Virus genome (UHGV): UHGV-1858859
DNA from: a virus
Reading direction: 5' to 3' (one strand)
Length of the DNA: 44,515 nt
The notes under the pieces: model-generated
Seen by the model: the letters and a program-made list of their open reading frames with translations, nothing else
Database searches by the model: none
What the model was told of the DNA's origin: nothing
Made by a program: the position numbers and the translations under genes
Shown here: piece after piece, positions 11,901 to 41,312 of the stretch
Position numbering within the stretch: the first letter of the stretch is position 1
Layout of the letters: every line of letters starts with the position of its first letter

Positions 11901-12078
11901 GCAAATCACCCGGCATGTCGCTGCCGTCGGTGCAATCCCATACCCGCACAGGCTCGTCGTCAAAAGCATATGTGCAGATAAGCACTTCGGTAGTCGGGTG
12001 TTCGGCGTAAGCGTAGGAGCCGACTTTCTTCAAATCGGCTTCGGAGAATGTTTCAAAGTCCAGGTATAAGTAGCTCAT
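8980..12078 (-). CDS. family A DNA polymerase (3'-5' exonuclease + polymerase) interrupted by an in-frame intein
   Basis: Exo I motif LDFETFS near the N-terminus, motif A DYSNVEGRGLAWLAGE, motif B split as RQIGKA / CELGLGYEGG around the intein, motif C LSVHDELV. Start set at ATG 12078 (MSYLYLDFETF) with an AAGGA RBS rather than the track start at 12132. Confidence 0.85.
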   Translation of the reverse strand: MSYLYLDFETFSEADLKKVGSYAYAEHPTTEVLICTYAFDDEPVRVWDCTDGSDMPGDLHRALRRLVKPNSRIKMVWHNGSMFDRLIMKHCWDFDIPVGNTIDTMIWAFRHALPGSLDALCEVLGVSADNAKDKRGKALIQRFSKPTPKNYKIRRYTAETHPDEWALFIKYAVSDITAMREVFHKLPRWGNSEFEDRVLELDQLINDRGFKVDVALAEAAIEAVEKHKAQLQEEAQRKYGGSLTGKDFLPILRELAPAHRIHNAQKSTLNDLLADDDLPDDARTIIEMRLGAASTASTKYNPLLLGRSSDDRRRGCLQYGGAKRTLRWAGKGFQPQNLARGYYHDYELDKGISALLKGRAHRRFDVAKLTASTVRSCIIPEAGRKFVVADYSNVEGRGLAWLAGEETALDTFRAGLDIYCVTAGKMFGMDPDDIKKERKDLRQIGKACLHRHTQVLTDGGFKDIMAVTPTDKVWSGEKWVNTKGAHLMGWKPVINVDGVLMTEDHKILTHSWKAAKQLVSNKYMMGLALGRGGVAWLSYVSYLNDKAKDNYSPNVIVGRCQGGSIMTMSERVKPLNATAARLKRQKDIVNNISATKTQCQMTRTERDCSTGCRRQSCEQQAPEIRVIKTMGQGVSRCVTSGGPIKGRFLDMFKLWKAGMTQTSKWTESTQTVTTSLETFGLSAVRKTAVTDGGYLSFNESTMLPLPALLSLNGKLTYCEPVYDLIDVDDGNRFLIASDSGFLVAHNCELGLGYEGGVGAFVTFAKNLGLDLIEMAKTMDGTFPDHIWAATARGYEWARIQEAKRPPHPGEKDDRPSYILDKKVWRTCDAIKRMWRESHPETVAFWRDLKDGILAAVRNPGREFWAGAHLRRNRERAIRIWRTVEFDSSGRKVPGWWLCMELPSGRILSYPGIGVSVTKETDEDGRVNTNVRIKYQGENQLTRQWTTLYTHGGKACENIVQALCRDLLAYAMINVEGGGYPIVLSVHDELVCETPDTPDYTVPELEKLMCALPEWAEGFPLVAEGAEMKRYAK
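9841..10737 (-). mobile_element. intein (299 codons) inserted in DNA polymerase motif B
   Basis: Block A CLHRHTQVLTDGG right after motif B Lys-Ala; block B GVLMTEDHKILT; blocks F/G VYDLIDVDDGNRFLIASDSGFLVAHN followed by Cys +1. Removing it restores RQIGKACELGLGYEGG. Confidence 0.7.
9902..10660 (-). CDS. HNH endonuclease encoded inside the intein in a different reading frame
   Basis: 252-codon ORF in another frame of the same strand; contains KGYKNYGARGITVCDQW ... EMDRIDTDGNYEPGNIRFVSRSEN, resembling free-standing phage HNH endonucleases. True start uncertain. Confidence 0.6.
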   Translation of the reverse strand: MEWRKMGEYKRRAPYGVETSDKCGRGSNDRRPQNLDAFLEGGKATRFKQIYDGPRPGERWGRLVILRELSKRQGQRQLLAQCDCGEMPGRVYYDNVRAGKTTQCNRCALEATKRYRKQYFCYEDAMPDDAHRTRLLNRLSAAIVRTTSPRDKGYKNYGARGITVCDQWRTDKRSFLRYVQTLEGWDDPNLEMDRIDTDGNYEPGNIRFVSRSENCRNRRRIPELQRKYDAAVARIAELEREINLLRAGLRPD

Positions 12079-12230
12079 TTCTTTTTCCTTAAATCCAGTG
12101 CCTTCGTTTCGCTGAGTCTTATTTTCATACAATCACGACAAATCCACACATGCCTGTACCCGGCGCGGTACTCATCCGCGTACCACGGAAGCGGTTTCAT
12201 ATATCGGTATACGTGCTTACAGAAAAACAT
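12075..12230 (-). CDS. small Cys-containing protein (51 aa)
   Basis: MFFCKHVYRYMKPLPWYADEYRAGYRHVWICRDCMKI...; stop overlaps the polymerase ATG (ATGA); below track cutoff. Confidence 0.3.
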   Translation of the reverse strand: MFFCKHVYRYMKPLPWYADEYRAGYRHVWICRDCMKIRLSETKALDLRKKK

Positions 12231-12250
12231 GATTTTCGACCCTTAGTAAA

Positions 12251-12270
12251 AAGGCCCAATGAAGGGCCTT
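12251..12270 (-). terminator. stem-loop downstream of the SSB-like gene, weak T-run
   Basis: aaggccc-aatgaa-gggcctt hairpin about 20 nt after the stop at 12290; only ttt follows on the minus strand, so probably partial termination. Confidence 0.4.
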
Positions 12271-12289
12271 AGTTAAATTGATTCAGATA

Positions 12290-12916
12290 TTAACGGCGGC
12301 GACGTTCGCGGCGCGGTGCTTCATCTTCTTCGTCGTCTTCCAGGTCATTGACGCTTGCGGCGACTTTAGAACCACCAAACGCTTTACCTTCGCCAACATA
12401 TTTAATTGCCAGCAGGTTAACGCCTAGAACTTTATATTTCTGGCTGAACCAGATTTCAACGCTTACATTAGCTACGCAGCCACTGTAAACCTGTTCACCT
12501 TCAATCTGTTCGCCGTCTACGTTGAAGTCCTGCTCTACCTGAGTCTCACCTTTTTTAGATGTTACAATCAGTGGCTGTTTCTGTGCCTTAGCTTTGAAGT
12601 AGAAGCCTTCCGGGAAGTCTTCAAACGGATTGTCGCGTTCAGCAATATCTTTAATTGCACATTTATCCATGTGCTTACCTTCGCCGTAGTTGGACTTCAT
12701 CCACTTCTCGGCAGCGGCTGCGCCTAACGCTTCTTCAACTACAGCGTAGACAGTGTCGTAGAGCGCGTCGATTTGCGCGTGGTCAGACGGCAGGATTATA
12801 GTCGCGCTGTACTGGCCTTTAGTGGTGGAGCCATCATCGTTTTCACGGTCTTTTTCGCGTTCGAATACGTTAACCCAGGCAGTGTTTACTTTACGCAGAT
12901 TCAGCTTAATACCCAT
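12290..12916 (-). CDS. ssDNA-binding-like protein with acidic C-terminal tail
   Basis: 208 aa ending in DLEDDEEDE...RRERRRR; sits between a Cas4-like nuclease and the polymerase, as in a conserved phage replication cassette; own promoter upstream. Confidence 0.5.
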   Translation of the reverse strand: MGIKLNLRKVNTAWVNVFEREKDRENDDGSTTKGQYSATIILPSDHAQIDALYDTVYAVVEEALGAAAAEKWMKSNYGEGKHMDKCAIKDIAERDNPFEDFPEGFYFKAKAQKQPLIVTSKKGETQVEQDFNVDGEQIEGEQVYSGCVANVSVEIWFSQKYKVLGVNLLAIKYVGEGKAFGGSKVAASVNDLEDDEEDEAPRRERRRR

Positions 12917-12971
12917 ATCTCGATTCCTCAGTTTTTAGTTTACTCCGGGAAGCTGCCCGGCCAGTGATTAG

Positions 12972-13000
12972 AACTATAATAGCCAACTATTCAGGTGTCA
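12972..13000 (-). promoter_or_regulatory. sigma70-like promoter TTGACA-N17-TATAGT with embedded palindrome
   Basis: Minus-strand reading ttgaca cctgaatagttggctat tatagt; contains ATAATAG-ccaa-CTATTCA (plus strand 12975-12992). Confidence 0.6.
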
Positions 13001-13005
13001 ACACT

Positions 13006-14247
13006 TTATTCCAAATCTTCTTCACTAACCTGATTCCACTCAGGCCGTTTGTCGTCTGCCGTTGTGATGCATGGGGCACCTGGTTTACGTGTGATGAAGT
13101 CTTTCAGTTCTTCTTCCGGCACAACTTTAACCGCTTCGGTCGGCGTCATGAGCACTTCTTTAGTCAGCTTGTCGCCGTAGAGTTCTGTTACTTTCTCCGC
13201 GTCTTTCCACGCACGATTGCCCATCTTACCTTCAACCAGCTTGTACCCAGGAACTTTCTTACCGGAATGCAACGCGGCAGCCATAGCTTTCTCAACCTTG
13301 TCGATGTGCTGGCGCAACAACGGCAACTTCTCGTACTCAGCTACGAGTTCCTCCGGCGTAAGTTCCAGCGCAAAGTCGTCCTCCAGTTCTTCCGCCAGCA
13401 CCGCGTTGACGGTTTTTGTACGCGCGGCGCACTGCTCTGAGAAACGGCACCATTGGCAACCGTCGACAGACGGCCTGAAGTCCGACGCTTTCAGGTTCTT
13501 TTTACCACGGAAATACGCATCAAGAGCTAACAGCGCCCGTTTCTGCGCAAACTTAGCGAACAGTTCCAGACCTTCAACCGAGATGTCCCACTCCGACGCG
13601 CCGCCAGCGTATGGCTGAAAGATGACCAGACGAACGGTTGTTATGTTATAACGTCTCTTGAGTCGGCGATAAACACCTAGAGCGTAGAGCATAAGCTGCT
13701 TGTTTTCTTTCGCTTCGACACGATGCCGTCCTGTTTTCAGGTCGCCGATGATAAGCATGTGCCCGTCAGTGTTAGCCAGTTCCTGAACGGCAACAAGGTC
13801 AGCGGTTCCGAACGTCTCAACGCCTTCATACCCAGGATGCAATACCTCAGTAAGATTGACGCGCATTTCCAGCTTGGCGTAAGTTGCTACATCGATAATC
13901 GGTTTGCAGTAGTCGGTGTACTTTCGCACCTGCTCAATCATGTCCGCCGTAATCAGTACCGCGCCTTTCATCGGGCTGATTAGCGCCTTAATCTGGCCTT
14001 TACCCTCATCCAGCACGTAAGCGCCAACTTCACGCTCTAACGGCAACGCAGTGCAGCGGATATAGGCGTTGAGATGGACTTCAGCTATGGTGTGGCACGC
14101 TGTCCCCGTAACGGCGGATTTACCCGACGTGTTAGGAATATCTTTTTCACAGGCCAGTGATGCAGCGCATGACAGCCATTTTTTAGCACCTGACGGCGAA
14201 AGTAAGGCGTGAACATCGTTATTGCCGCCGCGTTCTTTTAGAATCAT
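13006..14247 (-). CDS. PD-(D/E)XK nuclease, Cas4-like with Cys cluster
   Basis: IIGDLKTG motif, N-terminal LSCAASLAC and C-terminal CQWCRFSEQC cysteines consistent with a Cas4/RecB-like Fe-S nuclease. Confidence 0.65.
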   Translation of the reverse strand: MILKERGGNNDVHALLSPSGAKKWLSCAASLACEKDIPNTSGKSAVTGTACHTIAEVHLNAYIRCTALPLEREVGAYVLDEGKGQIKALISPMKGAVLITADMIEQVRKYTDYCKPIIDVATYAKLEMRVNLTEVLHPGYEGVETFGTADLVAVQELANTDGHMLIIGDLKTGRHRVEAKENKQLMLYALGVYRRLKRRYNITTVRLVIFQPYAGGASEWDISVEGLELFAKFAQKRALLALDAYFRGKKNLKASDFRPSVDGCQWCRFSEQCAARTKTVNAVLAEELEDDFALELTPEELVAEYEKLPLLRQHIDKVEKAMAAALHSGKKVPGYKLVEGKMGNRAWKDAEKVTELYGDKLTKEVLMTPTEAVKVVPEEELKDFITRKPGAPCITTADDKRPEWNQVSEEDLE

Positions 14248-14606
14248 CGTAAACTCTCCAAATACAAGTTTAATGCCTGTAGCTGTTCTTCTGAGGGGGT
14301 GAAAGAATCATCGCGATGTAAGTCGCTTAACTGTTGCAACATTCCTGCGAACTGACGTCTTGCGTCAACAGCGGCCATGTGATGCTTTTCACTTTTGTAT
14401 ATTAATGTTTTCGGGTAATCCTCAAGCCTACCAGAAGATTTATTCACGCGGAGCGCCCGGGCTTCATGCGCAATGTGGATGTACTTTTTGCCGTTTTGTA
14501 ACACAGTAGCTACGCCGCTGTTCTTTCTGCGGTCACCGACGGTGTAAACCTTGTCACCGCTGCGCAAATTAAGCCACCATTTATCCGTCATACCCTGCTC
14601 TCCCAC
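14244..14606 (-). CDS. hypothetical protein
   Basis: 120-aa ORF in the leftward early operon, overlapping neighbours by a few nt. Confidence 0.5.
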   Translation of the reverse strand: MGEQGMTDKWWLNLRSGDKVYTVGDRRKNSGVATVLQNGKKYIHIAHEARALRVNKSSGRLEDYPKTLIYKSEKHHMAAVDARRQFAGMLQQLSDLHRDDSFTPSEEQLQALNLYLESLR

Positions 14607-14903: not shown

Positions 14904-15404
14904 TTATTCTTCTTCGAAATACTTGTTCTTGATTGCTGTCAGGCGTTCCAGGTACTCGGCCAGGTCTTCGTCTTTAATCGCGGCAATCTTCATCTTCTTA
15001 CCGGTGAACTCTTCCAGCAGTTCATCAGAATCGTCGCACGCGGCATCGCTCGGACCTTCGTTAATTGCATCGTCGATAGCCTGAATCTGGTCACGAAGAG
15101 ACTGGTAATCGACCTCTTCTTTCTCTTCTTCTGGTTCTGGCGTCGACTCCTCTACTTTAGCTTTACGCGGCTTACGTTTTGGCTTCTCTTCTTCTGCCGG
15201 TTTAGTGTCGACGATGTCTTCACCTTCAACCGGGATTTCTTTTGTTTCTTCTTTAATACTTTCAGAGAACTGCTCAATTTTATGAGCGGCTACTGCGGCA
15301 GCCTCTTTGGCAGTAGTTGGCGCGAACTGTTTCGCACTATTCGCAGCAATCAGTTCATGTGCAACTACGAAACGTTCCAGTAATACTAAGAATTTCTCTA
15401 ACAT
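14904..15404 (-). CDS. acidic early protein
   Basis: 166 aa, Glu/Asp/Lys-rich; first gene downstream of the leftward promoter; RBS GAGGAGAG 6 nt before the ATG. Confidence 0.55.
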   Translation of the reverse strand: MLEKFLVLLERFVVAHELIAANSAKQFAPTTAKEAAAVAAHKIEQFSESIKEETKEIPVEGEDIVDTKPAEEEKPKRKPRKAKVEESTPEPEEEKEEVDYQSLRDQIQAIDDAINEGPSDAACDDSDELLEEFTGKKMKIAAIKDEDLAEYLERLTAIKNKYFEEE

Positions 15405-15435
15405 TTGTTTCTCTCCTCTCGTTTGGTATGGGCTA

Positions 15436-15464
15436 ACTATAATAGTGAACTATTCACATGTCAA
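15436..15464 (-). promoter_or_regulatory. sigma70-like promoter TTGACA-N17-TATAGT with embedded palindrome
   Basis: Minus-strand reading ttgaca tgtgaatagttcactat tatagt; contains ATAATAG-tgaa-CTATTCA (plus strand 15439-15456). Confidence 0.6.
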
Positions 15465-15468
15465 TGGG

Positions 15469-15497
15469 CTTTTCTAAAATAATTAATATGGTACTAT
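15469..15497 (+). promoter_or_regulatory. candidate rightward extended -10 promoter with degenerate motif copy
   Basis: tggTACTAT (TG-n-TACTAT) at 15489-15497 with a poor -35 (cttttc); CTATTCA half-site at 15494-15500; about 30 nt upstream of the HTH gene. Confidence 0.35.
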
Positions 15498-15528
15498 TCA
15501 CATATCAACTAACTAAGGAGTAATTGTC

Positions 15529-15744
15529 ATGCAACCATCTGAACTAGGCATCCGTGTAGAAAAACGCCGTAAAGAACTCGGCATCTCCCAGCGCCGTCTG
15601 GCGGTGCTGACCGGGGTTTCCCAGGGCGCAATTAACCAGCTGGCACTTGGGGTAACCCAGGACGTCCGCCCGGCAACGCTGTTTAAACTGGCGGAAGTGC
15701 TGGAGGTAGACGCCAAGTGGCTGGCGCTAGGTGAAGGGGCTTAA
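15529..15744 (+). CDS. XRE/Cro-type helix-turn-helix transcriptional regulator
   Basis: 71 aa; HTH signature ISQRRLAVLTGVSQGAINQLALG; AAGGAG RBS; divergent from the leftward operon. Confidence 0.8.
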   Translation: MQPSELGIRVEKRRKELGISQRRLAVLTGVSQGAINQLALGVTQDVRPATLFKLAEVLEVDAKWLALGEGA

Positions 15745-15760
15745 TGCCCCTTTCTTTTTA
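15734..15760 (+). terminator. rho-independent terminator
   Basis: aaggggc-ttaat-gcccctt hairpin spanning the stop codon, followed by tttcttttt. Confidence 0.6.
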
Positions 15761-15761
15761 C

Positions 15762-18002
15762 CTACTCCAAATCCTCCTCTGTCACCACCAGCATTTCATT
15801 CGGTTCGTATATTGTCTTCGGTCTTAATCTGTCGCCCATCTTTTCCGGTATCCTGTATGTGCCCGGTATAACTTCACCGTTAACATCGCACCCTAGCATC
15901 AACTCACCATCTTTCAGCATCTTCTCGAGATGGTGGTTGGTGATGGCGTGGTCGCCTGAGTTCACCACTATCTGCCGTTGGGTAAAACCGCGTCCGGTGT
16001 CGTCAGCCTGCTGCAGGTCTTCCAGCGCGGCGAGTATTGATTCCTTACGCCCTTCATCCTTCCCGCGTTTTACAGCATTCTTTACGTTTTCTTTACCTTC
16101 TTTCGTCAGCCCTTCTTCCCGCTCTTTCTCCTCGTCAGTTTTGAACGGCTCGAAGCCCCACGGCATCAACACAAGTGCCTTATGTGGTTCTGGCAGGTCG
16201 AGGTTTACGATTGTGCCGTATTCCTCTGTGCTACCCAGGAACTCAACCGCACGGTACTCTTTCGGCGGCGGGGCTTCACGGAACTGTACCGACTCCAGCA
16301 CCATACCAACCGTCTTCTGTTGAGGCCCGTGCTTAAATTTAGAGTGGTATACATTTATCTGACGGTCGGTTGCGCGTTCAATTGTCAGTTCCACATCGAC
16401 GCCTGCGTACAGCGCGCCACTACCACGGGCTTTCTTTCCACCCTTCGGGGTATGGTGGACGACGCCTACCGCGGCTTTAGTTGTGTCGCGTACTTCTTTC
16501 ATGATTGCGATAACTTTACCCATACCGATTGCCGTTGATGAACTGTTCTCGTCGAACTTATCGATCGTCAGGGCCAGCGTCTGGTTGAGGGTGTCAAACG
16601 CAACCATGCCAATAGGTTCATCCCCCGCAGTTTCGCGCATTAACTTAATCAGGCTTTTCAGTTTTCCGACTTCGCCCATGTCGATGACATGTACATAATC
16701 TTTACCTTCCTCGCCGTATTTAGCCGCGAGTGCGTCAATACGTGTGCGTGTAGCCGCGCCACCCTCACCGTCGATATAGAAGTGATGGCAACGCTGGGTG
16801 TCCGCCCCGGCGAACCGGTATCCGGCGGCGCTAAGATACATCATCCCCAGCGTATAGAACGATTTGTATGTGCCCGACTCCCCGACGATATCCCAGATGC
16901 AGTCTGACGGCATATAACCTTCAACGACGAAATCAGCCTTTACCGGTTCCGGTAGCTCGTCCTCCTCTGAGCCATCATCGTCTTCCAGGTCGTCCAGGCT
17001 GCATGAAACAGATTCACGCGCACCCCATCCGATAGCCTCGGCAACTTCACTGAACGGCAGCCCGGTCGCATCACACGCATACTTCCACACCTCTTTCGGC
17101 GACATGCCTTCGGTTGCCGTAATGTCAGTGTCGTGGATCATGGTTACGTTCGGCGCTTCGTAGCCCTCGCGCGGGAAGCACAGCAGGAAGTCGTCCGGGC
17201 GCGGCGTAGGGTCGCTGTAATTTTCTGCATGTTCCGGCGTAGCTGGCATCTTAAGGCCGCGGGGCGTCATAACACCGCCGTACTCAAACGCCAGTGCCTC
17301 AAACGCATCAGTAAACGCGGTACGCAGTTCTTCTGGTATCTGGTAGTCAGATGCGCTGCTCACCTCGTAATCCGGGATGCCTTCCAGTAACTCTTCCGGG
17401 TCAATCAGGTCGTTTCGGCGCGACCAGATAACGGTAGAGCCAACCGGCGGCAGGTACATAGGCTGCGACAGAGTGAAACCGCTGCGGTCCGCGCCCATGC
17501 CTTTGAAGAAGTGTTCCAGCAATCCATGGCGAACACGGATGATGTCTCCGCCTTCAACCGGGCGGCCCAGCGGCATGACGACGCGAAAGCGTGGTGACTC
17601 ATCGGTATGGGATGCCGTGGTGTAGAGGCACATAGCCTGGCGGCTGCGCTTAACCAGGAGCACAGCTTCCTGATACTCTTCCGGTGTTGCGCTGTCGAAG
17701 TCAAGATACGCCAGCGACGATTTGCTTACAGACGCATCGCAGCGATAGAAGAAGCCTTTGCGTGCTTGCTTAAAGTCTCCAGTTTCCGGGTCTTTTACAG
17801 TGCTGTGCGTCGAGTCGCACGCGGCAGTGATATAACCAGGCGCGGTCTTCGGGTTAACCCCGTCACGAACAGCATCGAGCGGCCGGAGTAGCTCTTTCAG
17901 GTCGTCCAGTGTTGCCGCATGTGTTGTTCTGACGTTTATATCCTTTTTCTCAGCCCGCGCGTTGCGGCGGGACCACGAGTAGGATAAAATTACATCGGAC
18001 AT
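15762..18002 (-). CDS. DNA primase/helicase (primase-polymerase-like N-terminus, P-loop NTPase C-terminus)
   Basis: 746 aa; DFD and SHTD motifs in the N-terminal half; P-loop-like VGESGTYKS and Walker B-like MVAFDTL in the C-terminal half. Confidence 0.6.
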   Translation of the reverse strand: MSDVILSYSWSRRNARAEKKDINVRTTHAATLDDLKELLRPLDAVRDGVNPKTAPGYITAACDSTHSTVKDPETGDFKQARKGFFYRCDASVSKSSLAYLDFDSATPEEYQEAVLLVKRSRQAMCLYTTASHTDESPRFRVVMPLGRPVEGGDIIRVRHGLLEHFFKGMGADRSGFTLSQPMYLPPVGSTVIWSRRNDLIDPEELLEGIPDYEVSSASDYQIPEELRTAFTDAFEALAFEYGGVMTPRGLKMPATPEHAENYSDPTPRPDDFLLCFPREGYEAPNVTMIHDTDITATEGMSPKEVWKYACDATGLPFSEVAEAIGWGARESVSCSLDDLEDDDGSEEDELPEPVKADFVVEGYMPSDCIWDIVGESGTYKSFYTLGMMYLSAAGYRFAGADTQRCHHFYIDGEGGAATRTRIDALAAKYGEEGKDYVHVIDMGEVGKLKSLIKLMRETAGDEPIGMVAFDTLNQTLALTIDKFDENSSSTAIGMGKVIAIMKEVRDTTKAAVGVVHHTPKGGKKARGSGALYAGVDVELTIERATDRQINVYHSKFKHGPQQKTVGMVLESVQFREAPPPKEYRAVEFLGSTEEYGTIVNLDLPEPHKALVLMPWGFEPFKTDEEKEREEGLTKEGKENVKNAVKRGKDEGRKESILAALEDLQQADDTGRGFTQRQIVVNSGDHAITNHHLEKMLKDGELMLGCDVNGEVIPGTYRIPEKMGDRLRPKTIYEPNEMLVVTEEDLE

Positions 18003-18059
18003 GTTGTATTTCCTTCAGCAAGTAATTTGGCCTCGGCGCTCTAACGTCGGGGCTTTCTT

Positions 18060-18293
18060 TTATTCCAGGTCTTCTAAAGTAGCGGTCATTCCGCGAACTT
18101 CAGCAATGGCACTATATTTCCCGCCGACATTTTTCACGACACCGGATTTAACCAGCACCTTCAACGACCCTTCAATAATGGCGGAACTATAGTACCTAAA
18201 ATAACTGCGGCGCAAGTCCATAACGCTGCACGAACCTTTTTTACGTGTTAAGGAAACTACCGCCGTAAATACGCGTGACTGGAACTCGGTCAT
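18060..18293 (-). CDS. hypothetical protein
   Basis: 77-aa ORF; its ATG overlaps the stop of the upstream HTH gene (ATGA). Confidence 0.5.
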   Translation of the reverse strand: MTEFQSRVFTAVVSLTRKKGSCSVMDLRRSYFRYYSSAIIEGSLKVLVKSGVVKNVGGKYSAIAEVRGMTATLEDLE

Positions 18294-18460
18294 TTTACAT
18301 TCTCCTTAATCCACGCTTCCACTTTCTCCGGGTCAAACGTGCCAGGCTGGCGACGGCCCATAATGCGGATACAACAATCCGGGAACTTCCCGCTCTTTAA
18401 CCAGTTATTCAGCGTGCGACGGGTAACCCCGATACGCTCAGCCACCTCATTCTGTGTCAT
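18290..18460 (-). CDS. AlpA/Xis-like HTH DNA-binding protein (56 aa)
   Basis: MTQNEVAERIGVTRRTLNNWLKSGKFPD... matches the AlpA/excisionase-like HTH pattern; GAGGG RBS; below track cutoff. Confidence 0.5.
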   Translation of the reverse strand: MTQNEVAERIGVTRRTLNNWLKSGKFPDCCIRIMGRRQPGTFDPEKVEAWIKENVK

Positions 18461-18492
18461 TCTTAAACCCTCATTATCAGTTAACGAAACCG

Positions 18493-18521
18493 AGTATACA
18501 TTGCGAATAATGGGAAATCAA
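18493..18521 (-). promoter_or_regulatory. candidate sigma70-like promoter TTGATT-N17-TATACT
   Basis: Minus-strand reading ttgatt tcccattattcgcaatg tatact, about 30 nt upstream of the AlpA-like gene. Confidence 0.4.
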
Positions 18522-18892
18522 ACATAATTGCACCTATTGACATTATGAAAATCTTCGTTTAAGGTGCTTCTATATCTTAGTTACTTTGATTCCTGTTCAC
18601 CTTGTAAGAATGCTTAACCCGTGCGTTAAGCAAAGGGTTAAGCAGCAGGCTTACTGAACACGAGAATTATTGTAACTTTCCTTCCTAAGTATCTCCGGTT
18701 GCCCTGGGCAAGCTCTATTCTCATCGGCGGCATATCTCTTAAGTATCTGATTTTCTTAATGTGCCGTAGATTCGCAACCGTAAAAATGTAACGATTATTG
18801 GGCAGGCTTAGGGCCTGCCCTTTAGTTACCAAGTAATAAGAATAAAGGCACAACTCTACCTGAAGAATCACAACGGCAACGTAACTATTTTC

Positions 18893-18921
18893 TTGCACAC
18901 CCCAACATAATAGGATACTAT
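18893..18921 (+). promoter_or_regulatory. sigma70-like promoter TTGCAC-N17-TACTAT with embedded palindrome
   Basis: ttgcac accccaacataatagga tactat; motif ATAATAG-gata-CTATTCA at 18907-18924; a 36-bp block is repeated as an exact inverted copy at 40388-40423. Confidence 0.65.
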
Positions 18922-18946
18922 TCACTTATCGAAACGAGACAGATGA

Positions 18947-19147
18947 GTGAGGGTTATGTTTAAGAAGGGTCAGTTGGTGAAAACGATGTACGGTAGCTTA
19001 GGTATTATTGAAAAGAAATCGACAGTGTACCGAAGTTCTTATGTCGTTAGCTTACTCAGGGAGCACGGGTTAAGTTCCACGGCGTATTACCGAGAGTATG
19101 AAATGAAGCTCATCGGCAACAATTTTAAATTCAAAGGGGCGAAGTGA
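18947..19147 (+). CDS. hypothetical early protein
   Basis: First ORF downstream of the rightward promoter; start ambiguous (GTG 18947 or ATG 18956). Confidence 0.4.
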   Translation: MRVMFKKGQLVKTMYGSLGIIEKKSTVYRSSYVVSLLREHGLSSTAYYREYEMKLIGNNFKFKGAK

Positions 19148-19398
19148 TGGAAGAATTAATTTGTATTGAGTCTAAAGCAGAAATGGGCGGTTGGTTTATA
19201 AAAGGCAACGAGTATTCGTTGAAAGTACACTACGACGGTCGTCTCTACGTTTTAGACGAGGAAGGTGATGAGTGGGATTTAGAGCAATCACATGGTGAAG
19301 CCTTTACCGTGAATGCCCTGGGCACACCGGCGGTAACATTCAGAACGGCATCGAATCATGATGCTCGTGCCGACGACTCTGAGGGAGGTTGCCGTTAA
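19144..19398 (+). CDS. hypothetical early protein
   Basis: 84-aa ORF with ATGA overlap to the upstream gene. Confidence 0.45.
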   Translation: MMEELICIESKAEMGGWFIKGNEYSLKVHYDGRLYVLDEEGDEWDLEQSHGEAFTVNALGTPAVTFRTASNHDARADDSEGGCR

Positions 19399-19589
19399 TG
19401 AGAATTCGAATAATTGATGTCGATTATGTGCTGCCGCCGAGGTATGGTGACCATTCTTTGCGCCACTTTGGTGTTTCGATAGGCGATGAGTTTGATATTA
19501 CTTACCGCAACGACTACGGGTATCTTGTAGAAAAGGATGGTGAAGAACTGTTTATTCGTAACAGAGAGGCGGAGATTATCTATGAATAA
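19389..19589 (+). CDS. hypothetical early protein (paralog A)
   Basis: 66 aa, MPLMRIRIIDVDYV...GVSIGDEF...; overlaps the upstream gene. Confidence 0.45.
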   Translation: MPLMRIRIIDVDYVLPPRYGDHSLRHFGVSIGDEFDITYRNDYGYLVEKDGEELFIRNREAEIIYE

Positions 19590-19649
19590 TTACCCGTTCA
19601 TTTTAATCATCAGCGCCGTTTATGTGGCGCACGCGTTGCGGGGGTTGGT

Positions 19650-19805
19650 ATGAGAATCCGTATAACTGACCGCAGGCTTGTAGATTTCGGTATCTCGGTA
19701 GGTGATGTTTTTATGGCGTTCAGCAGCAACCATTATGGTTTTATGATTGAGTACAAAGGGTCGTTATTGTTCGTGTATCGGGATGAATGCGAGGTTCTGG
19801 TATGA
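19650..19805 (+). CDS. hypothetical early protein (paralog B)
   Basis: 51 aa, MRIRITDRRLVDFGISVGDVF...; same MRIRI...G(V/I)SVGD pattern as 19389-19589; below track cutoff. Confidence 0.35.
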   Translation: MRIRITDRRLVDFGISVGDVFMAFSSNHYGFMIEYKGSLLFVYRDECEVLV

Positions 19806-19963
19806 GAGAAGCATTCGAACGGTGGGCCGTCGTCGAGGGTCTGCCGGTTAACAAGGGGCCAAAGAAAGAGTACCTGAACGTTAAGACGCGTCTCGCGTGG
19901 CGGGCGTGGAAAGCTGGTGCGAATGTAATGGCTGGTGCATTCGAAAAGAGAGGTGATTTATGA
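19802..19963 (+). CDS. hypothetical early protein (53 aa)
   Basis: ATGA-coupled at both ends between neighbouring ORFs; below track cutoff. Confidence 0.3.
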   Translation: MREAFERWAVVEGLPVNKGPKKEYLNVKTRLAWRAWKAGANVMAGAFEKRGDL

Positions 19964-20160
19964 GCGAGTGGATTAAGTGTAGTGAGATGCTACCAGGTAA
20001 CGGAAGTACTGATAAAGAGTTCCTGGCGTATGAAACGTTGAATAACGCAGTTCAGCACGACTATTACATCGTTCCTGATGACGGGAGAAAGCCGTTCTGG
20101 AATCACTATGATAAGTACGTGACACACTGGATGCCGTTACCAGAGCCGCCAGAAGTGTGA
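19960..20160 (+). CDS. DUF551-like protein
   Basis: C-terminal VTHWMPLPEPPEV recalls the conserved DUF551 C-terminus (from memory). Confidence 0.5.
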   Translation: MSEWIKCSEMLPGNGSTDKEFLAYETLNNAVQHDYYIVPDDGRKPFWNHYDKYVTHWMPLPEPPEV

Positions 20161-20193
20161 TGTTCAATAGTTTGGGATTTTACTGAGTGACTT

Positions 20194-20226
20194 ACGCTGC
20201 TACACGGCAGCGTATCATTTTTCTCA
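20194..20226 (+). terminator. rho-independent terminator
   Basis: acgctgc-tacacg-gcagcgt hairpin followed by atcatttttctcattttt. Confidence 0.5.
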
Positions 20227-20284
20227 TTTTTGTTCTATTTAACCAAACGCAACAATCGAAGCGACTATTGCAGGAGATGCAACA

Positions 20285-20455
20285 ATGAAACTGAATGACA
20301 TCGTAACCTGGACTGGTAGAAACGGAGAAAAGCGATTCGGGCTTATTGTTGCGTCAGACGGCAACAAGTACCGTGTTATGCGATGGCGTCAGTGGGCGAG
20401 ACGCCCGAGGTACTACTGGATTCGCGGTGAACAATTATCGTTAAAACACCAATAA
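20285..20455 (+). CDS. small basic protein (56 aa)
   Basis: ATG preceded by GCAGGAG RBS; Arg/Trp-rich; below track cutoff; no obvious promoter of its own. Confidence 0.3.
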   Translation: MKLNDIVTWTGRNGEKRFGLIVASDGNKYRVMRWRQWARRPRYYWIRGEQLSLKHQ

Positions 20456-20462
20456 AATTTAC

Positions 20463-20491
20463 TTGCACACTTGGATAGAATAGGCTACTAT
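20463..20491 (+). promoter_or_regulatory. sigma70-like promoter TTGCAC-N17-TACTAT with motif copy
   Basis: ttgcac acttggatagaataggc tactat; CTATTCA at 20488-20494; followed by leader cgaacgagaggagagacagaag-ATG. Confidence 0.65.
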
Positions 20492-20522
20492 TCATTTACA
20501 CGAACGAGAGGAGAGACAGAAG

Positions 20523-20672
20523 ATGGTTACTTTGATGGTTATGGAGTTTGAGAACAGCACCGCAACTTACCGCGAGATGACTATGGCGCAGGCGTATCAC
20601 CTGGCCTCAAACGGCAACTTCTACAAAGCGCAAATCATCAATGAGTTCGGGGTGATTGACTATGAATTTTAA
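20523..20672 (+). CDS. small early protein (49 aa)
   Basis: ATG 7 nt after a GAGGAGAGA RBS; below track cutoff. Confidence 0.4.
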   Translation: MVTLMVMEFENSTATYREMTMAQAYHLASNGNFYKAQIINEFGVIDYEF

Positions 20673-20934
20673 CAGCTACACCGTTACCGTTTATTTTGAG
20701 GGGCTGGAATTGCCCCTACCTAACAACTACCGATATATCTCACGCGATCGTAACGGGTTTATTCAGGGGTGGAGGAACAAACCGACAGACACTGAGTTTG
20801 GGATGTCGGGCGGAGAAGAGATGCCGATCACTTTCGGGCATCAGAGCAGCCACGAAGAACTTAAAACGGTGATTCGTAAGTATCGCCGCCGAGGTAACCC
20901 CGGGCTTATCGCGATAACAGGTGCTGTTGAATAG
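20662..20934 (+). CDS. hypothetical early protein
   Basis: ATG at 20662 (MNFNSYT), ATGA-type overlap with the upstream ORF; track start at 20656 is a TTG. Confidence 0.45.
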   Translation: MNFNSYTVTVYFEGLELPLPNNYRYISRDRNGFIQGWRNKPTDTEFGMSGGEEMPITFGHQSSHEELKTVIRKYRRRGNPGLIAITGAVE

Positions 20935-20952
20935 ACGAGAGGGGAGACAGAG

Positions 20953-21432
20953 ATGAGTAACAAAAACGAAGTATTCGAGTACCTGATTGACCAGCTACGG
21001 CAGCAGGTAAATAACAACCAGTGCGAAGACTTGGCACATGAGGTGCAGTCACTTAAGAATCAGTTACGTGATGCTTCGGCGCAGATTAAGGAGTTGCATC
21101 TGGCGTTGGTTAAAGCTACCGGTGACATAGGCGCTTATATAGCAGCAGAGCAATCTGGTTGCCGTAAGGAAGATACTCAGTACAACGCCTGGAGGCCGCA
21201 TTATGGTGCACGACAACCTGTGCCGGATGGGACTATGGTATTTATCCGGTATCGCAACGGGGAGGAGCCGAAACACAGTGTAGCAGCAGAAAAGCGGTCG
21301 TGGATTTGGGATGGAACATACGCAGACATAGTGGAATACAAGATTGACACACAGGAATGCGAGCATGACTATCGTTTGGTTCTGTGGTGTAGCGACTTAC
21401 AGCAGTGCTCTAAATGCGGGGTGATCAAATGA
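20953..21432 (+). CDS. hypothetical early protein with C-terminal Cys motif
   Basis: 159 aa; preceded by leader gacgagaggggagacagag-ATG; C-terminal CEHDYRLVLWCSDLQQCSKCG. Confidence 0.5.
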   Translation: MSNKNEVFEYLIDQLRQQVNNNQCEDLAHEVQSLKNQLRDASAQIKELHLALVKATGDIGAYIAAEQSGCRKEDTQYNAWRPHYGARQPVPDGTMVFIRYRNGEEPKHSVAAEKRSWIWDGTYADIVEYKIDTQECEHDYRLVLWCSDLQQCSKCGVIK

Positions 21433-21632
21433 CCAGCATATTATTTATCTGGGTACTGTCCGCAGGCCAGTTACAACTTGCGGCATCAGAAACGTTTTAC
21501 TCGATGGAGGCGTGCCAGTCAGCGGCACGCGCCGCAGAGAACGCGCACTTCCTGTTTCAGGGCGACAAGCCCAACGATTCAGAGGTACGCGCTATCTGCT
21601 CACCTAAGCGACTTGGTAAACAGGAGAAATAA
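21429..21632 (+). CDS. small protein with hydrophobic N-terminus (possible signal peptide)
   Basis: MTSILFIWVLSAGQLQLAASE...; ATGA overlap with the upstream gene. Confidence 0.4.
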   Translation: MTSILFIWVLSAGQLQLAASETFYSMEACQSAARAAENAHFLFQGDKPNDSEVRAICSPKRLGKQEK

Positions 21633-21634
21633 TT

Positions 21635-21889
21635 ATGGTACAGAGATATTTATTACAAGGTGGTTTAATAGGACCGCACGACGATGGTGACTGGGTTGGT
21701 TATGACAGCTACAAGGAACTGGACGACAGTTTCCAGGACTACATAACCACTACGGACATGGAGATAGAAGGGCTTGTGTCAAGACTGGCAGAAGTAAACG
21801 CCGAGTTACAGAAATACAAAGACCAGTTCCCTGATTACGTCGAGTGCGCGAACTGTGGGTCAGTTACACATGTGGAAGGGGTAGAGTGA
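21635..21889 (+). CDS. hypothetical early protein
   Basis: 84 aa; begins MVQRY like the next ORF; C-terminal CANCG motif. Confidence 0.45.
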   Translation: MVQRYLLQGGLIGPHDDGDWVGYDSYKELDDSFQDYITTTDMEIEGLVSRLAEVNAELQKYKDQFPDYVECANCGSVTHVEGVE

Positions 21890-22083
21890 TGGTACAGAGG
21901 TATGAGGTGGAAAAATGGGGCCTGCCAGAGCCTGAGATGGCTGAGTACGCATACGGCGATTATGTAGAATACGACGCTTATCTTAAACTGGAAGCAAAGT
22001 TACGTGAATTCGCTGAACAGGTAATGTACGAACCTTGTTCGAAAGTTACAGAAGAAATGGCCCGCGAGATTCTCGGAATATGA
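21889..22083 (+). CDS. hypothetical early protein
   Basis: ATG overlaps the upstream stop (GTGATGG); begins MVQRYEVEKWG. Confidence 0.4.
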   Translation: MVQRYEVEKWGLPEPEMAEYAYGDYVEYDAYLKLEAKLREFAEQVMYEPCSKVTEEMAREILGI

Positions 22084-22373
22084 GCCTTGCAACTGACATC
22101 CTGAAACGAAGCGGCCTTGCGCCGCTGTCACCGAGAACGAACACCCGAATATACAAGCGCCGCCGTAACGCGCTGTACCCTGAGATTCAAGCCAGACGCA
22201 AAGCAGTCCGCGCCTGCGGATTCCAGAACGGGAAGGCCGTGAATCTCGGTGAGTTTAAAACAAAGGAACGTGCAGCAATCGCTAATCGGTTATTTAATTA
22301 CTGGAAATCGCTGGGGTACGATGATATTCCGACGAAGCCACAGAGACGACAATACATCTGGAGACACAAATAA
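22080..22373 (+). CDS. hypothetical basic protein
   Basis: ATGA-coupled start; 97 aa, Arg/Lys-rich. Confidence 0.4.
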   Translation: MSLATDILKRSGLAPLSPRTNTRIYKRRRNALYPEIQARRKAVRACGFQNGKAVNLGEFKTKERAAIANRLFNYWKSLGYDDIPTKPQRRQYIWRHK

Positions 22374-22448
22374 ACCGTTATTAGGATAATTCCTACCCGT
22401 GGTATCCTCCAGTTACTGCATACTTAATACGCACCTGGAGGATTCATC

Positions 22449-22757
22449 TTGGATAAATTTACTGAAACAGTGACAGGCTGGCTTCTCGCTGCCGCGCTAG
22501 CCGGAGGGGTAATCGGACTACGGCAACATAAGTCCGCTATTTCCGGCCCTATCGACGGATTCTGCTTTATCGCAACTGGCTTCACTTGCGCTGTATTTGG
22601 CGCACCTCTTGCCGCTCAATGGTTTGGCATCACAGGCGACCGTGAAATCGCCGGGTTGGGCTTCATTATCGCTATTCTCTGGATGCCTATCTATTCCCGC
22701 CTTTCTGGCATCGTCGCCGGAGAATACATTGCACGTCGAGGAGGTCCAGATGAATGA
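22449..22757 (+). CDS. holin-like membrane protein
   Basis: TTG start with strong GGAGGA RBS; several hydrophobic segments; immediately upstream of the endolysin. Confidence 0.5.
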   Translation: MDKFTETVTGWLLAAALAGGVIGLRQHKSAISGPIDGFCFIATGFTCAVFGAPLAAQWFGITGDREIAGLGFIIAILWMPIYSRLSGIVAGEYIARRGGPDE

Positions 22758-23022
22758 GTTATTCTGGTTCGGCGGTATGCTGGCAATCGGCGGCACATCG
22801 CTGTTTAATGTGTATCATCCCAGCGTGGACGACGGGTTATTCGGTCGGGTGCTCTATATCCTGACAGCTATCGTCTGCGCAGCCGGATGTATCCACCTGT
22901 TGCAGGGCAGCATGTCACCAACGCTGCCTGAGACATTAATCACATTAGTTGCGCTGCGCCAGATTCGTCAGGCGTGGCTGTCATACGGAGGACATAAGCG
23001 TGTCTCGAAACATTTCAGATAA
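22750..23022 (+). CDS. second small membrane protein of the lysis cassette (holin or antiholin candidate)
   Basis: ATG with AGGAGG RBS; two hydrophobic segments (FWFGGMLAIGGTSLF, LYILTAIVCAAGCIHLL). Confidence 0.45.
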   Translation: MNELFWFGGMLAIGGTSLFNVYHPSVDDGLFGRVLYILTAIVCAAGCIHLLQGSMSPTLPETLITLVALRQIRQAWLSYGGHKRVSKHFR

Positions 23023-23488
23023 TGGATTGCATTTTACCGCTGCGTTCGAGGGCTTCCGGGGAACCGCGTACCTCGCTACGCCGGATGAGAAGTACCTGAC
23101 TATAGGCTACGGGCATTATGGGCCTGACGTAACCCCGGGCAAGACCATCACGCCGGGGCAGGGTCTCCTGCTACTGAATCGCGATATGGCTAAGGCCGTA
23201 GCTGCGGTTGACGCTGCGGCGCACCATTCACTGACACAGGCGCAGTTCGACGCAGTGTGCGACCTGGTCTACAACGCAGGTGCTGGCGTGATTGCGGCTA
23301 CTACCGGCACGGGCAAGGCACTGCGTTCTGGTGATATTGTAACTCTGCGGGGTAAGCTGGCGCTGTTCATCAACCAGAACGGCAAACCATTACTCGGCCT
23401 GCGTCGCCGTACTGCGGGCCGTCTGGCCCTGTTCGACGGCAAACCGTGGCAGGAGGCAGAGGCTATCGGGCGCGCGGTGAAAGGTTGA
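23000..23488 (+). CDS. endolysin, GH24 (T4/lambda-type) lysozyme
   Basis: FEGFRGTAYLATPDEKYLTIGYGH catalytic Glu/Asp/Thr spacing; QFDAVCDLVYNAG; in-frame GTG with GGAGGA RBS. Confidence 0.75.
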   Translation: MSRNISDNGLHFTAAFEGFRGTAYLATPDEKYLTIGYGHYGPDVTPGKTITPGQGLLLLNRDMAKAVAAVDAAAHHSLTQAQFDAVCDLVYNAGAGVIAATTGTGKALRSGDIVTLRGKLALFINQNGKPLLGLRRRTAGRLALFDGKPWQEAEAIGRAVKG

Positions 23489-23544
23489 CACCTGAGACTA
23501 ATCCGACGATACTTAAATCACCTCCTGTTCCATCCCTCTGCTCT

Positions 23545-23580
23545 CCAGTTTTATCCCGGCCCTGACCCAGCCGGGATTTT
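23545..23580 (+). terminator. rho-independent terminator after the lysis genes
   Basis: cccggc-cctgaccca-gccggg hairpin followed by atttttatctatttt. Confidence 0.55.
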
Positions 23581-23666
23581 TATCTATTTTCTGCAATGAC
23601 TAGTTGACTATTACCTTAGACCCTATTATATTTACTCCATCAACAACGAGAACGGAGTAGAGAGAA

Positions 23667-23855
23667 ATGATGACTAAGATTAAACATACCGATGACTGGG
23701 GTGATTTCATGGAGATAGAGAAGTGCAGGGATGGTTCATTACTTATAACTTGCACCGACGGTGATAGTGACGAATGGGCTAATGTTAATGTGAGCCTGGA
23801 CGATTTTGAGATTATTGTTGAGCAGGTTATGGCGTTTTATGGAGATGTTAAATGA
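23667..23855 (+). CDS. hypothetical protein
   Basis: 62-aa acidic ORF with GGAG RBS. Confidence 0.4.
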   Translation: MMTKIKHTDDWGDFMEIEKCRDGSLLITCTDGDSDEWANVNVSLDDFEIIVEQVMAFYGDVK

Positions 23856-24001
23856 AAATCACAGATATCGAAGCATTCGAAGACGCACAACTGATGGCAC
23901 GCATTGCCGTTAGTAACCTAGGCGGAAGCATTCCTGCGGACGCGTTCTGGTCCGCAGGAATGCAGGCACTGAAAGCAGCTTATGCAGGAGATAAGAAATG
24001 A
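23852..24001 (+). CDS. hypothetical protein (49 aa)
   Basis: ATGA-coupled; below track cutoff. Confidence 0.3.
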   Translation: MKITDIEAFEDAQLMARIAVSNLGGSIPADAFWSAGMQALKAAYAGDKK

Positions 24002-24153
24002 GCGAACAAGGTCAAGTAAGTCAACCCTTACGAGTAGGCCGTAAAGTCAGTCACACCCCGTTCCCGACACGCGAGGAATTGATGAAACGTAACAGTTTCC
24101 CAGGGCCGGACAAGAACAAGTATCTCAATCGCATGTGGGGAGAGCAGAAATGA
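23998..24153 (+). CDS. hypothetical protein (51 aa)
   Basis: ATGA-coupled at both ends; below track cutoff. Confidence 0.3.
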   Translation: MSEQGQVSQPLRVGRKVSHTPFPTREELMKRNSFPGPDKNKYLNRMWGEQK

Positions 24154-24338
24154 CTGATCGTGAATACGAAAAGATGATGGTGGACGCTGCAAATGGAAAA
24201 ACGCAGAATGCTAAAGCTGAAATAGGGATACTCGATAAGCGGATAGAAGAACAGGCTCGATACCTTGACCGCCTTATGGAACGCCGCCGTGAACTGATTA
24301 ATCGCTTCAACCTGAACAAAGGTGACGCCAATGCCTAA
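24150..24338 (+). CDS. hypothetical coiled-coil protein
   Basis: ATG at 24150 (MTDREYEK) overlapping the upstream stop. Confidence 0.4.
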   Translation: MTDREYEKMMVDAANGKTQNAKAEIGILDKRIEEQARYLDRLMERRRELINRFNLNKGDANA

Positions 24339-24570
24339 AATAACAATCGCATCACTTGAGCGCCGTATCCTGGTACTTGAGTCAGAGAAACAGACGTTAG
24401 GTGGGCAACTGTCGATTAACGGTGAGTTTCAACTGGAGGCGTTTAAGTTGTTACTTGATAAGTTGAAAGCGGACGAAAAGCCTTGCGCGCATGACTACTA
24501 CATGCATTTAGTTGATGGGGTACATCGGGTTACATGCATTAAATGCGGTAAAGCGTATGGAGTCGCCTAA
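24331..24570 (+). CDS. hypothetical protein with C-terminal zinc-ribbon-like motif
   Basis: CAHDYYMHLVDGVHRVTCIKCG; start overlaps the upstream gene. Confidence 0.4.
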   Translation: MPKITIASLERRILVLESEKQTLGGQLSINGEFQLEAFKLLLDKLKADEKPCAHDYYMHLVDGVHRVTCIKCGKAYGVA

Positions 24571-31530: not shown

Positions 31531-31556
31531 TTCTCATCTCCTGTTTAAGTTAACTG

Positions 31557-31585
31557 AATAGTACCCTATTATGTTGGTGCGCGCA
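31557..31585 (-). promoter_or_regulatory. sigma70-like promoter TTGCGC-N17-TACTAT with embedded palindrome
   Basis: Minus-strand reading ttgcgc gcaccaacataataggg tactat, with ATAATAG-ggta-CTATTCA. Confidence 0.6.
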
Positions 31586-31861
31586 AACTATTTATTTACG
31601 TATTCCAGTTATTCCACTCAATTGTAAACGTTGGAATAAACTATTCGAATAGTTGACTTTTCACTGAAAATATGATAAGCTCCACCTGAGCTTGTGAAGT
31701 ATGAGCAAGCGACCGCGGCGCGGGCAGGTAACGGAGCGGGACGTAAGTCCTGAGTGTAGTTACGCTGACGCGTTCGGAAGGGCCATACTCTATTGCTTGT
31801 GTAAAAAGTAACTGGTTTACTGAGATTACGCCGTTTCTATGTTTAAATGATAAGGACTAGC

Positions 31862-40353: not shown

Positions 40354-40394
40354 GGGGTAGCTCCTGTTTGAGTTAACATTGTTGGTGTAAGTGA

Positions 40395-40423
40395 ATAGTA
40401 TCCTATTATGTTGGGGTGTGCAA
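40395..40423 (-). promoter_or_regulatory. sigma70-like promoter TTGCAC-N17-TACTAT, exact inverted copy of the 18893 promoter block
   Basis: Minus-strand reading cttgcacaccccaacataataggatactattcactt is identical over 36 nt to plus strand 18892-18927. Confidence 0.65.
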
Positions 40424-40947: not shown

Positions 40948-41312
40948 ACGCGTTGCTCCAGTTTGCCCGTTGGAACTTCATAACCCGCCACAAACGGCGG
41001 GAGTTTGACAGCATTGCCGACGGACATAAAGCCGCGCTAATTGCTATGGGGGTTATGCAAGACGCGCCGGAAGCAACGCAGGATACCGGGCCAGAATGCC
41101 CCCCTGAGCTATTAACCACCTTCGAGAAGTACCGGGAAATCAAATTTACCCGCCGAGTGGATGACGACGGCATCAAGATGTACCCGCGCGAACAGTTAAG
41201 ATGGTCGGATTTAGTGGCATACAGCACCGTTTCGGGCCAGAATATAGACATGTTTGAATCTGACATCATCATGAGCTTAGACGCTATTTTCGAGGGCAGA
41301 AACGATGGCTGA
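40531..41312 (+). CDS. tail assembly chaperone frameshift product (GT-like), inferred
   Basis: Join of the G frame to the -1 frame ORF 40953-41312 via slip near 40938-40944; conserved arrangement upstream of tape measure genes. Confidence 0.4.
40938..40944 (+). other. candidate -1 programmed frameshift site (GGAAAAG) for a G-T fusion chaperone
   Basis: Heptamer sits 1 codon before the G stop; the -1 frame is open from here to 41312 (GKVDALLQFARWNF...). Confidence 0.45.

Follow-up and report, generated by a model that had tools for sequence, protein, structure and literature searches.

A purine-rich leader repeated before early genes of a Kagunavirus phage as the probable ribosome-binding end of a duplicated promoter-leader cassette

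A short purine-rich leader recurs, almost letter for letter, directly before start codons in UHGV-1858859, a single 44.5-kb stretch of DNA (44,515 nucleotides, nt; termed the window) that approximates the complete genome of a Kagunavirus (Guernseyvirinae). We consider it probable, from comparison of its copies within the window and among related phages, that this leader makes up the ribosome-binding end of an early promoter-leader cassette that has been duplicated. The core under selection would be GAGGAG, 8-10 nt ahead of the ATG, and the remaining bases would be alike through paralogy of the cassettes and through their service as homology patches in gene exchange.

Leader copies and their promoter modules

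The initial annotation of the window had reported nearly the same leader ahead of three start codons, 15404 (minus strand), 20523 and 20953, and the three copies are there, against 0.11 expected. The 17-mer ACGAGAGGAGAGACAGA finds four matches in the window at up to three mismatches, three of them at up to two; the shuffle mean is the 0.11 just quoted, and none of 100 dinucleotide-preserving shuffles reaches four. Copy 1, ACGAGAGGAGAGAAACA (15406-15422, minus strand), has two mismatches to ACGAGAGGAGAGACAGA and ends one base before ATG 15404; copy 2 (20504-20520, plus strand) is ACGAGAGGAGAGACAGA itself, two bases before ATG 20523 of a 49-amino-acid reading frame (DUF7170); copy 3, ACGAGAGGGGAGACAGA (20935-20951, plus strand), has one mismatch and ends one base before ATG 20953 (159 amino acids, phrog_6094). 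The open reading frames (ORFs) behind all three match phage protein families. The fourth match (26237, three mismatches) sits within a gene and was set aside as chance.

That the resemblance goes beyond a plain Shine-Dalgarno sequence, as the annotation also held, is clear when, for 74 genes called with a simple codon-bias caller, the 30 nt ahead of each start are scored by their closest match to the 17-mer. The distribution is bimodal: the three leader genes score 17, 16 and 15 of 17, the other 71 of the 74 no higher than 11. Leader similarity exceeds the GGAG core by far, yet is confined to few genes and is no general feature of ribosome-binding sites (RBSs) in this phage. The expectation that inclusion of more genes might leave nothing in common beyond GGAG is borne out across the genome in general, but not for the three copies. 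A(G)AGGAG or GAGGGG stands 8-10 nt before each of the three ATGs, which makes these Shine-Dalgarno sites in the sense of a stretch of 4-5 nt or more that can pair with the 16S rRNA 3' end (CCUCC) and lies 5-10 nt before the start of a real gene. Purines occupy 18 of the 20 positions ahead of each of the three ATGs, the maximum for any of the 74 genes, and ACGAGAGGAGAGACAGA contains no T.

Diverged copies had been proposed at 18947/18956 and 23667. They are real, being ACGAGACAGATGAGTGAGGGTT (18934-18955, plus strand), before ATG 18956 (63 amino acids, phrog_12538), and ACGAGAACGGAGTAGAGAGAA (23646-23666, plus strand), before ATG 23667, but are weaker, with only an ACGAGA 5' end, a purine-rich Shine-Dalgarno region and the same place after a promoter in common. 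The ACGAGA hexamer is not in itself enriched genome-wide (25 copies against about 22 estimated from sequence length alone); what sets it apart is its position alone. Another ACGAGA lies in the loop of the short hairpin ACTCCC-AAACGAGA-GGGAGT (43690-43725), just past the tape-measure gene (41305-43641), and is probably unrelated to the leader.

The position in question is defined by predicted promoters. Module A, ahead of copy 1, has TTGACA-17 bp-TATAGT at 15436-15464 (minus strand; 11/12 to the sigma70 consensus) with a palindrome, (T/G)AATAG-N4-CTATT(C/A), in its spacer at 15440-15455. Module B, ahead of copy 2 (20451-20491, plus strand), comprises an A/T-rich UP-like stretch, AATAAAATTTAC, a -35 TTGCAC (20463-20468), a 17-bp spacer and a -10 TACTAT (20486-20491) overlapped by the palindrome GAATAGGCTACTATTC. 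A sister promoter of module B type (18893-18921, plus strand; TTGCAC-17 bp-TACTAT), with the palindrome AATAGGATACTATT over its -10, precedes the leader at 18934, and the module at 23604-23666 (plus strand; TTGACT-17 bp-TATATT, 10/12) carries its palindrome over the -35 and ACGAGAACGGAGTAGAGAGAA 13 nt after the -10. In all four modules ACGAGA starts 12-13 nt after the -10 (13 nt in module A). Another candidate for the -10 of module B, TAGAAT/CATAAT, which precedes TACTAT by 8 nt, was rejected because nothing like a -35 hexamer lies 16-18 bp ahead of it. The 23604 module and module A can be aligned from end to end, over their whole length, and are therefore paralogues. Duplication of promoter-leader modules, offered by the initial annotation as one origin of the leaders, is supported by this alignment, by the presence of promoters with the same palindrome at the leaders of 15406 (minus strand), 20504, 18934 and 23646, and by the origin of the copy at 20935 as the repeat of an insertion, described below.

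The palindrome itself, 16 bp of the form (G/T)AATAG-N4-CTATT(C/A), is found 12 times by the pattern AATAGNNNACTATTCA with both strands counted, against 0.92 in shuffles. The matches fall at about nine loci: 12978-12993, 15440-15455, 15485-15500, 18909-18924, 20479-20494, 23597-23612, 31555-31570, 31646-31663 and 40392-40407. Its placement at promoter-like sites varies, over the -35, in the spacer or over the -10, and two copies lie in the divergent region beside a small helix-turn-helix (HTH) gene (15529-15744), the second of them, AATATGGTACTATTCA (15485-15500, plus strand), being ahead of that gene. It is probably an operator, and from its distribution the whole set looks like genome-wide operators for early-promoter shut-off in a virulent phage. 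In the Kagunavirus fBC-Eco01, a PHIRE repeat present in 7 copies, tgAATAGTa-ccTATTat-T, was termed a promoter for a phage-encoded RNA polymerase (PMC9825357). This is the same palindrome as that at the leader promoters here (about 9 copies as against 7), and the fBC-Eco01 paper does not mention the leader (PMC9825357). The annotation of Bas73, a related phage, lists no gene for an RNA polymerase.

Some promoters of the window run with other leaders. Two of module B type, with the same hexamers and palindrome, are followed at 31531-31556 and 40354-40392 (both minus strand) by an unrelated sequence, TTAACTYAAACAGGAG, that forms a second shared leader, GTTAACT(T/C)AAACAGGAG; we take this type to resemble the T7 gene 10 leader (TTAACTTTAAGAAGGAG, the 'epsilon' enhancer). 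In Jersey-like phages ACTAAACAGGAG occurs as an alternative leader ahead of the MLEKFL gene. The promoter at 12917-13001 (minus strand; TTGACA-17-TATAGT, 11/12), before a Gp2.5-like single-stranded DNA-binding gene (12290-12916), has no ACGAGA leader; its leader carries instead a conserved hairpin, CCGGGCAGCTTCCCGG, kept in Jersey-like phages too.

Conservation and gene exchange among relatives

Positions 15000-21500 of the window matched 427 GenBank phage records by megablast, headed by Escherichia phage vB_VIPECOTPH05A (95% identity) and then many Kagunavirus and Salmonella Jersey-like phages, matches which identify the window as the genome of a Kagunavirus (Guernseyvirinae) coliphage. Module B was present in 117 of 117 matching Kagunavirus-type records, and module A in those and, in part, in 75 Salmonella phages. 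For a sample independent of the motif, 42 loci were fetched via the helicase-primase protein (individual loci and contigs are given L numbers). Nearly all Kagunavirus relatives (helicase 84-99% identical) have the leader at modules A and B, and module A is partly conserved in the Salmonella Jersey-like phages as well; in the latter (helicase 64-65% identical) the promoters and palindrome are kept, and of the leader only ACGAGA(GG) and a purine-rich Shine-Dalgarno region. The leader of the 23604 module is almost unchanged there. Only GAGG is invariant in the relatives. The 5' part of the leader drifts, to ACAAGA, GCGAGA, ATGAGA, ACGGGA and GTGAGG in Kagunavirus and to ATGAGA, ACGAAA, ACGAGG and GCAAAA in Jersey-like phages. 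Counterparts of the diverged leader at 18934 read ACGAGACAGAGGAGTGAGGGTT in L089 and ACGAGA(C/A)AAGAGGATGAATC in Jersey-like phages, before the same MFKKGQL gene.

How abruptly this conservation ends was seen from 25 unique instances of module B, anchored on the upstream AATAAAATTTACTTGCAC so that the leader itself was excluded from the selection, and aligned with MAFFT. Column identity is 0.7-0.99 from AACACCAATAAAAT to GACAGAA and about 0.3 right after the ATG, where 18 distinct N-terminal hexapeptides represent at least 14 unrelated first genes. Identity drops upstream of the cassette too; the conserved block is a promoter-leader unit of about 75 bp. Modules A and 23604 show the same pattern, with conservation up to the ATG and its loss beyond.

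Copy 3 of the leader (20935) has no promoter, and abuts the TAG stop (20932-20934) of the preceding ORF. Before it lies a two-gene cassette (20523-20934, plus strand; 20523-20672, 49 amino acids, and 20662-20934, 90 amino acids) that is absent from the relatives L076 and L090. When the window is compared with L076, the relative nearest to it in helicase (99%), positions 20444-20525 and 20935-24452 map to L076rc 10235-10315 and 10295-13838, with a 21-nt overlap that corresponds to the leader; the window therefore has a 431-bp insertion, made up of the two small ORFs and one leader and flanked by leader direct repeats. In both L076 and L090 the gene at 20953 (MSNKNEV...) stands directly behind the module B promoter. 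Copy 3 thus appears, from this mapping, to be a recombination scar, the right-hand repeat of the 431-bp insert. A second, independent promoterless leader is present in L080, before the MFLECKS gene, which in L087 is directly behind the promoter; and in L089, L111, L087, L076 and L113 the break in homology falls inside the leader, just after ACGAGAGG.

Beyond the relatives, an exact-pattern scan of IMG/VR for the 17-mer gave 79 matches in 74 stretches, 42 of them in related contigs and 37 in unrelated ones; the 37 were discounted as signal, being about the chance number estimated for a collection of that size. One unrelated phage group (L010, L012, L015, L022, L035, L040, L044 and L062; IMG/VR contigs of 11-49 kb) has CACACGAGAGGAGAGACACA-ATG(TTTCACGTG...) after its own promoter-like sequence, TTGCGC...TGCTAGAGT. 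The 801-bp stretch of L010 around this leader had no match among GenBank phages; similarity to the leader studied here may reflect either convergence on a similar purine-rich RBS or an old exchange.

The region as a whole consists, in order, of the start of the leftward early/replication operon, the small Cro/CI-type HTH gene, the helicase-primase gene, an AlpA-like gene (18290-18460) and the first part of an extended rightward array of small genes without known function. The leftward operon begins with the gene headed by copy 1 (14904-15404, minus strand; 166 amino acids, phrog_3127, function unknown), and divergent to module A is the HTH gene (15529-15744, plus strand; 71 amino acids) with a plain leader of its own, AAGGAGTAATTGTC-ATG. 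Further along the leftward operon, a 115-amino-acid protein (14244-14591, minus strand) gives a borderline match to PF24203, 'Phage ProQ C-terminal-like domain' (27.1 bits against a cut-off of 27; E = 7e-6), and is on that account a possible RNA-binding protein. In the rightward array, the 55-60-nt junctions at 19107-19161 and 19343-19402, which take in the stop codon of one small ORF and the start codon of its neighbour, share 95-96% identity with relatives, and the ORF bodies between them are unalignable. Judged from such alignments the array is a mosaic with conserved patches at gene boundaries, the leader among them. Two pairs of adjacent small ORFs, one in which both members start MVQRY (21635-21889 and 21889-22083) and one in which a stretch of about 47 amino acids aligns (19398-19589 and 19650-19805), look like diverged tandem paralogues.

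Origin of the leader identity: favoured and alternative explanations

The explanation we favour can be put as follows. Each Kagunavirus genome would carry several copies of a cassette of about 75 bp, consisting of an A/T-rich stretch, a sigma70-type -35/-10 promoter, the palindrome and a purine-rich, almost U-free leader of about 25 nt. Host RNA polymerase is predicted to start about 7 nt after the -10, which would therefore place ACGAGA at about +7/+8 and nearly the whole leader within the ribosome footprint. GAGGAG, 8-10 nt before the ATG, would pair with the 16S rRNA 3' end, and the leader would act as a strong RBS for whatever gene comes first. The cassette would serve at the same time as a homology patch at which phages exchange, insert and delete small early genes, and this traffic would keep its copies similar within and between genomes; when genes are inserted between the promoter and the leader-bearing gene, a promoterless leader would be left within the operon, as presumably happened at 20935. 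Identity beyond the Shine-Dalgarno core would then be due to common descent of paralogous cassettes and to exchange, not to a second signal.

The suggestion that the leader is a shared regulatory or RNA-processing element found no support in searches for such a signal. An Rfam scan of the whole window gave no match; the three leaders with their first codons fold no better than shuffles (z = -0.42, -0.03 and +0.81); no complementary copy of the kind expected of an anti-leader or antisense RNA was found elsewhere in the genome on either strand; and bases other than GAGG vary in relatives. Several points nevertheless weigh against the explanation given above. For module B, agreement with the sigma70 consensus is limited to 7 of 12 positions (manual count), and the promoter scan does not list it. 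A literature search on promoters, transcription starts and leaders in Kagunavirus and Jerseyvirus found only PHIRE-type palindrome predictions and no description of the leader; neither transcription starts nor expression data were found for these phages, and promoter use and leader length are therefore inferred. The modelled unpaired probability of the RBS in leader genes is only slightly raised (median 0.60, range 0.31-0.93, against 0.49 for all genes) and lends no more than weak support to the idea that a purine-only leader keeps the RBS open with any gene behind it. Finally, in a genus with no more than 64% helicase identity, several paralogous promoters still have ACGAGA at an unchanged distance from the -10. 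Such constancy across two genera fits descent alone less comfortably; persistence beyond what neutral drift would readily allow makes some selection on these bases possible, for instance through promoter escape or a bound factor.

A factor of this kind would bind the leader, especially ACGAGA(GG), in trans and co-regulate the first genes of several early transcripts, either as a phage translational repressor or RNA chaperone on the mRNA or as a DNA-binding protein at about +7 to +20. In its favour are the fixed spacing of ACGAGA, 12-13 nt from the -10 in the four modules and in their Jersey-like counterparts at 64% helicase identity, and the presence of the borderline ProQ-C-like protein (27.1 bits, cut-off 27) in the very operon that copy 1 heads. 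We still regard it as unlikely: the candidate site tolerates many substitutions in relatives, the promoters at 31531 and 40354 have the same palindrome and an unrelated leader, either leader type precedes the same MLEKFL gene in Jersey-like phages, the promoterless copy would be regulated out of context, and Pfam scans of 20 early proteins revealed no recognised translational-repressor or regulator domain, the one borderline ProQ-C-like match (14244-14591) apart. Selection of the purine-rich stretch mainly because, as the first part of the transcript, it hastens promoter escape, in the manner of GAGAGAGGAG at the start of transcripts from N25, a strong promoter of phage T5, or because a U-free leader escapes RNase E, is quite unlikely as a full account. 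The motif would lie at roughly +7 to +23 if transcription starts about 7 nt after the -10, and the purine content, 18 of 20 before the three ATGs, and lack of T are what such selection would favour; the copy at 20935, however, keeps the sequence without a promoter, and the promoters at 31531 and 40354, with the same -35/-10 and palindrome, have a pyrimidine-containing leader. Effects on escape or RNase E are compatible with the cassette explanation and would add to it rather than replace it.

Chance resemblance among ordinary Shine-Dalgarno regions is barely credible. All three copies do have a normal GAGG/GGAG core, and the 37 of 79 IMG/VR matches in unrelated contigs come roughly to the chance estimate, but no shuffle in 100 reaches the observed count, the scores of 15-17 of 17 stand apart from the 11 or less of other genes, and dozens of relatives keep the leader at the corresponding loci. 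A bolder proposal, which we think improbable, is that ACGAGA(GG) at +7/+8 of four early transcripts is a cis-signal common to the Guernseyvirinae, read by a phage or host factor (the ProQ-C-like protein or the escaping RNA polymerase) that sets the timing or level of the first genes, the leader being also the crossover point of an exchange, in small siphoviruses, like that described next for T4-type phages.

Comparison with known systems

Seen as a duplicated promoter-leader cassette, the repeats provide a usable map of Kagunavirus early transcription units: four or five cassettes, a common palindrome that is probably their operator, and exact junctions for the swapping of accessory genes. Kagunavirus phages are under development as small chassis for phage engineering and therapy, and the cassette is in effect a natural "landing pad", since relatives tolerate many unrelated genes directly behind it. 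It would also extend to a siphovirus subfamily the use of regulatory cassettes as recombination patches that is seen in T4-type phages.

The latter are the mobile regulatory cassettes termed PeSL (promoter-early stem-loop; Arbiol et al. 2010, PMC2839356; PMC4122927). Both they and the Kagunavirus cassette are short intergenic repeats that combine an AT-rich stretch and a sigma70-like early promoter with an inverted repeat, and have a Shine-Dalgarno sequence and start codon at the 3' end. The PeSL inverted repeat lies between the -35 and -10, over the -10 or over the -35, and all three placements occur in this genome. Both are found ahead of small ORFans, genes without known function, in variable regions, where they mark the limits of insertions, deletions and replacements. 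In T4-type phages, recombination between PeSLs gives rise to encapsidated mini-circles. The differences are equally plain. The phages are a siphovirus of about 44 kb (Guernseyvirinae) and T4-type myoviruses, and there is no sequence similarity. The stable, G/C-rich stem-loop that defines PeSLs and serves as a transcription terminator or attenuator is replaced here by a 6+4+6 AT-rich palindrome with no T-run, which looks like a protein operator; its folding energy is -7.1 kcal/mol in module B and -2.9 kcal/mol in module A (no better than shuffles), and no terminator-like site is reported at the palindrome positions. Unlike in PeSLs, moreover, the conserved leader with its Shine-Dalgarno sequence belongs to the repeat and breakpoints fall within it. 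By this analogy the cassette would be PeSL-like in function, but it is not a PeSL member, because it lacks the terminator stem-loop and belongs to an unrelated phage group.

A second parallel is with mosaic lambdoid phages, at whose gene junctions short conserved boundary sequences are said to have been described by Juhala and co-workers in 2000 and by Clark and co-workers in 2001. Like these, the cassette is a patch of homology at gene starts that joins unrelated genes, with breakpoints at start codons or RBSs; unlike these, it comprises a whole promoter-leader unit, of which each genome carries several paralogous copies, and it belongs to a group of virulent phages. As an RBS it recalls the T7 gene 10 leader and the initial transcribed region of T5 N25, strong phage ribosome-binding leaders that are short, unstructured and purine/A-rich, with a strong Shine-Dalgarno sequence, and follow a strong early promoter. 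It has no sequence identity with them beyond GAGAGGAG-like purine runs, and the extended identity among its own copies would be explained by paralogy. Set beside these systems the leader reveals no new kind of regulatory element; ordinary phage biology would account for it, as part of a shared cassette at mosaic junctions.

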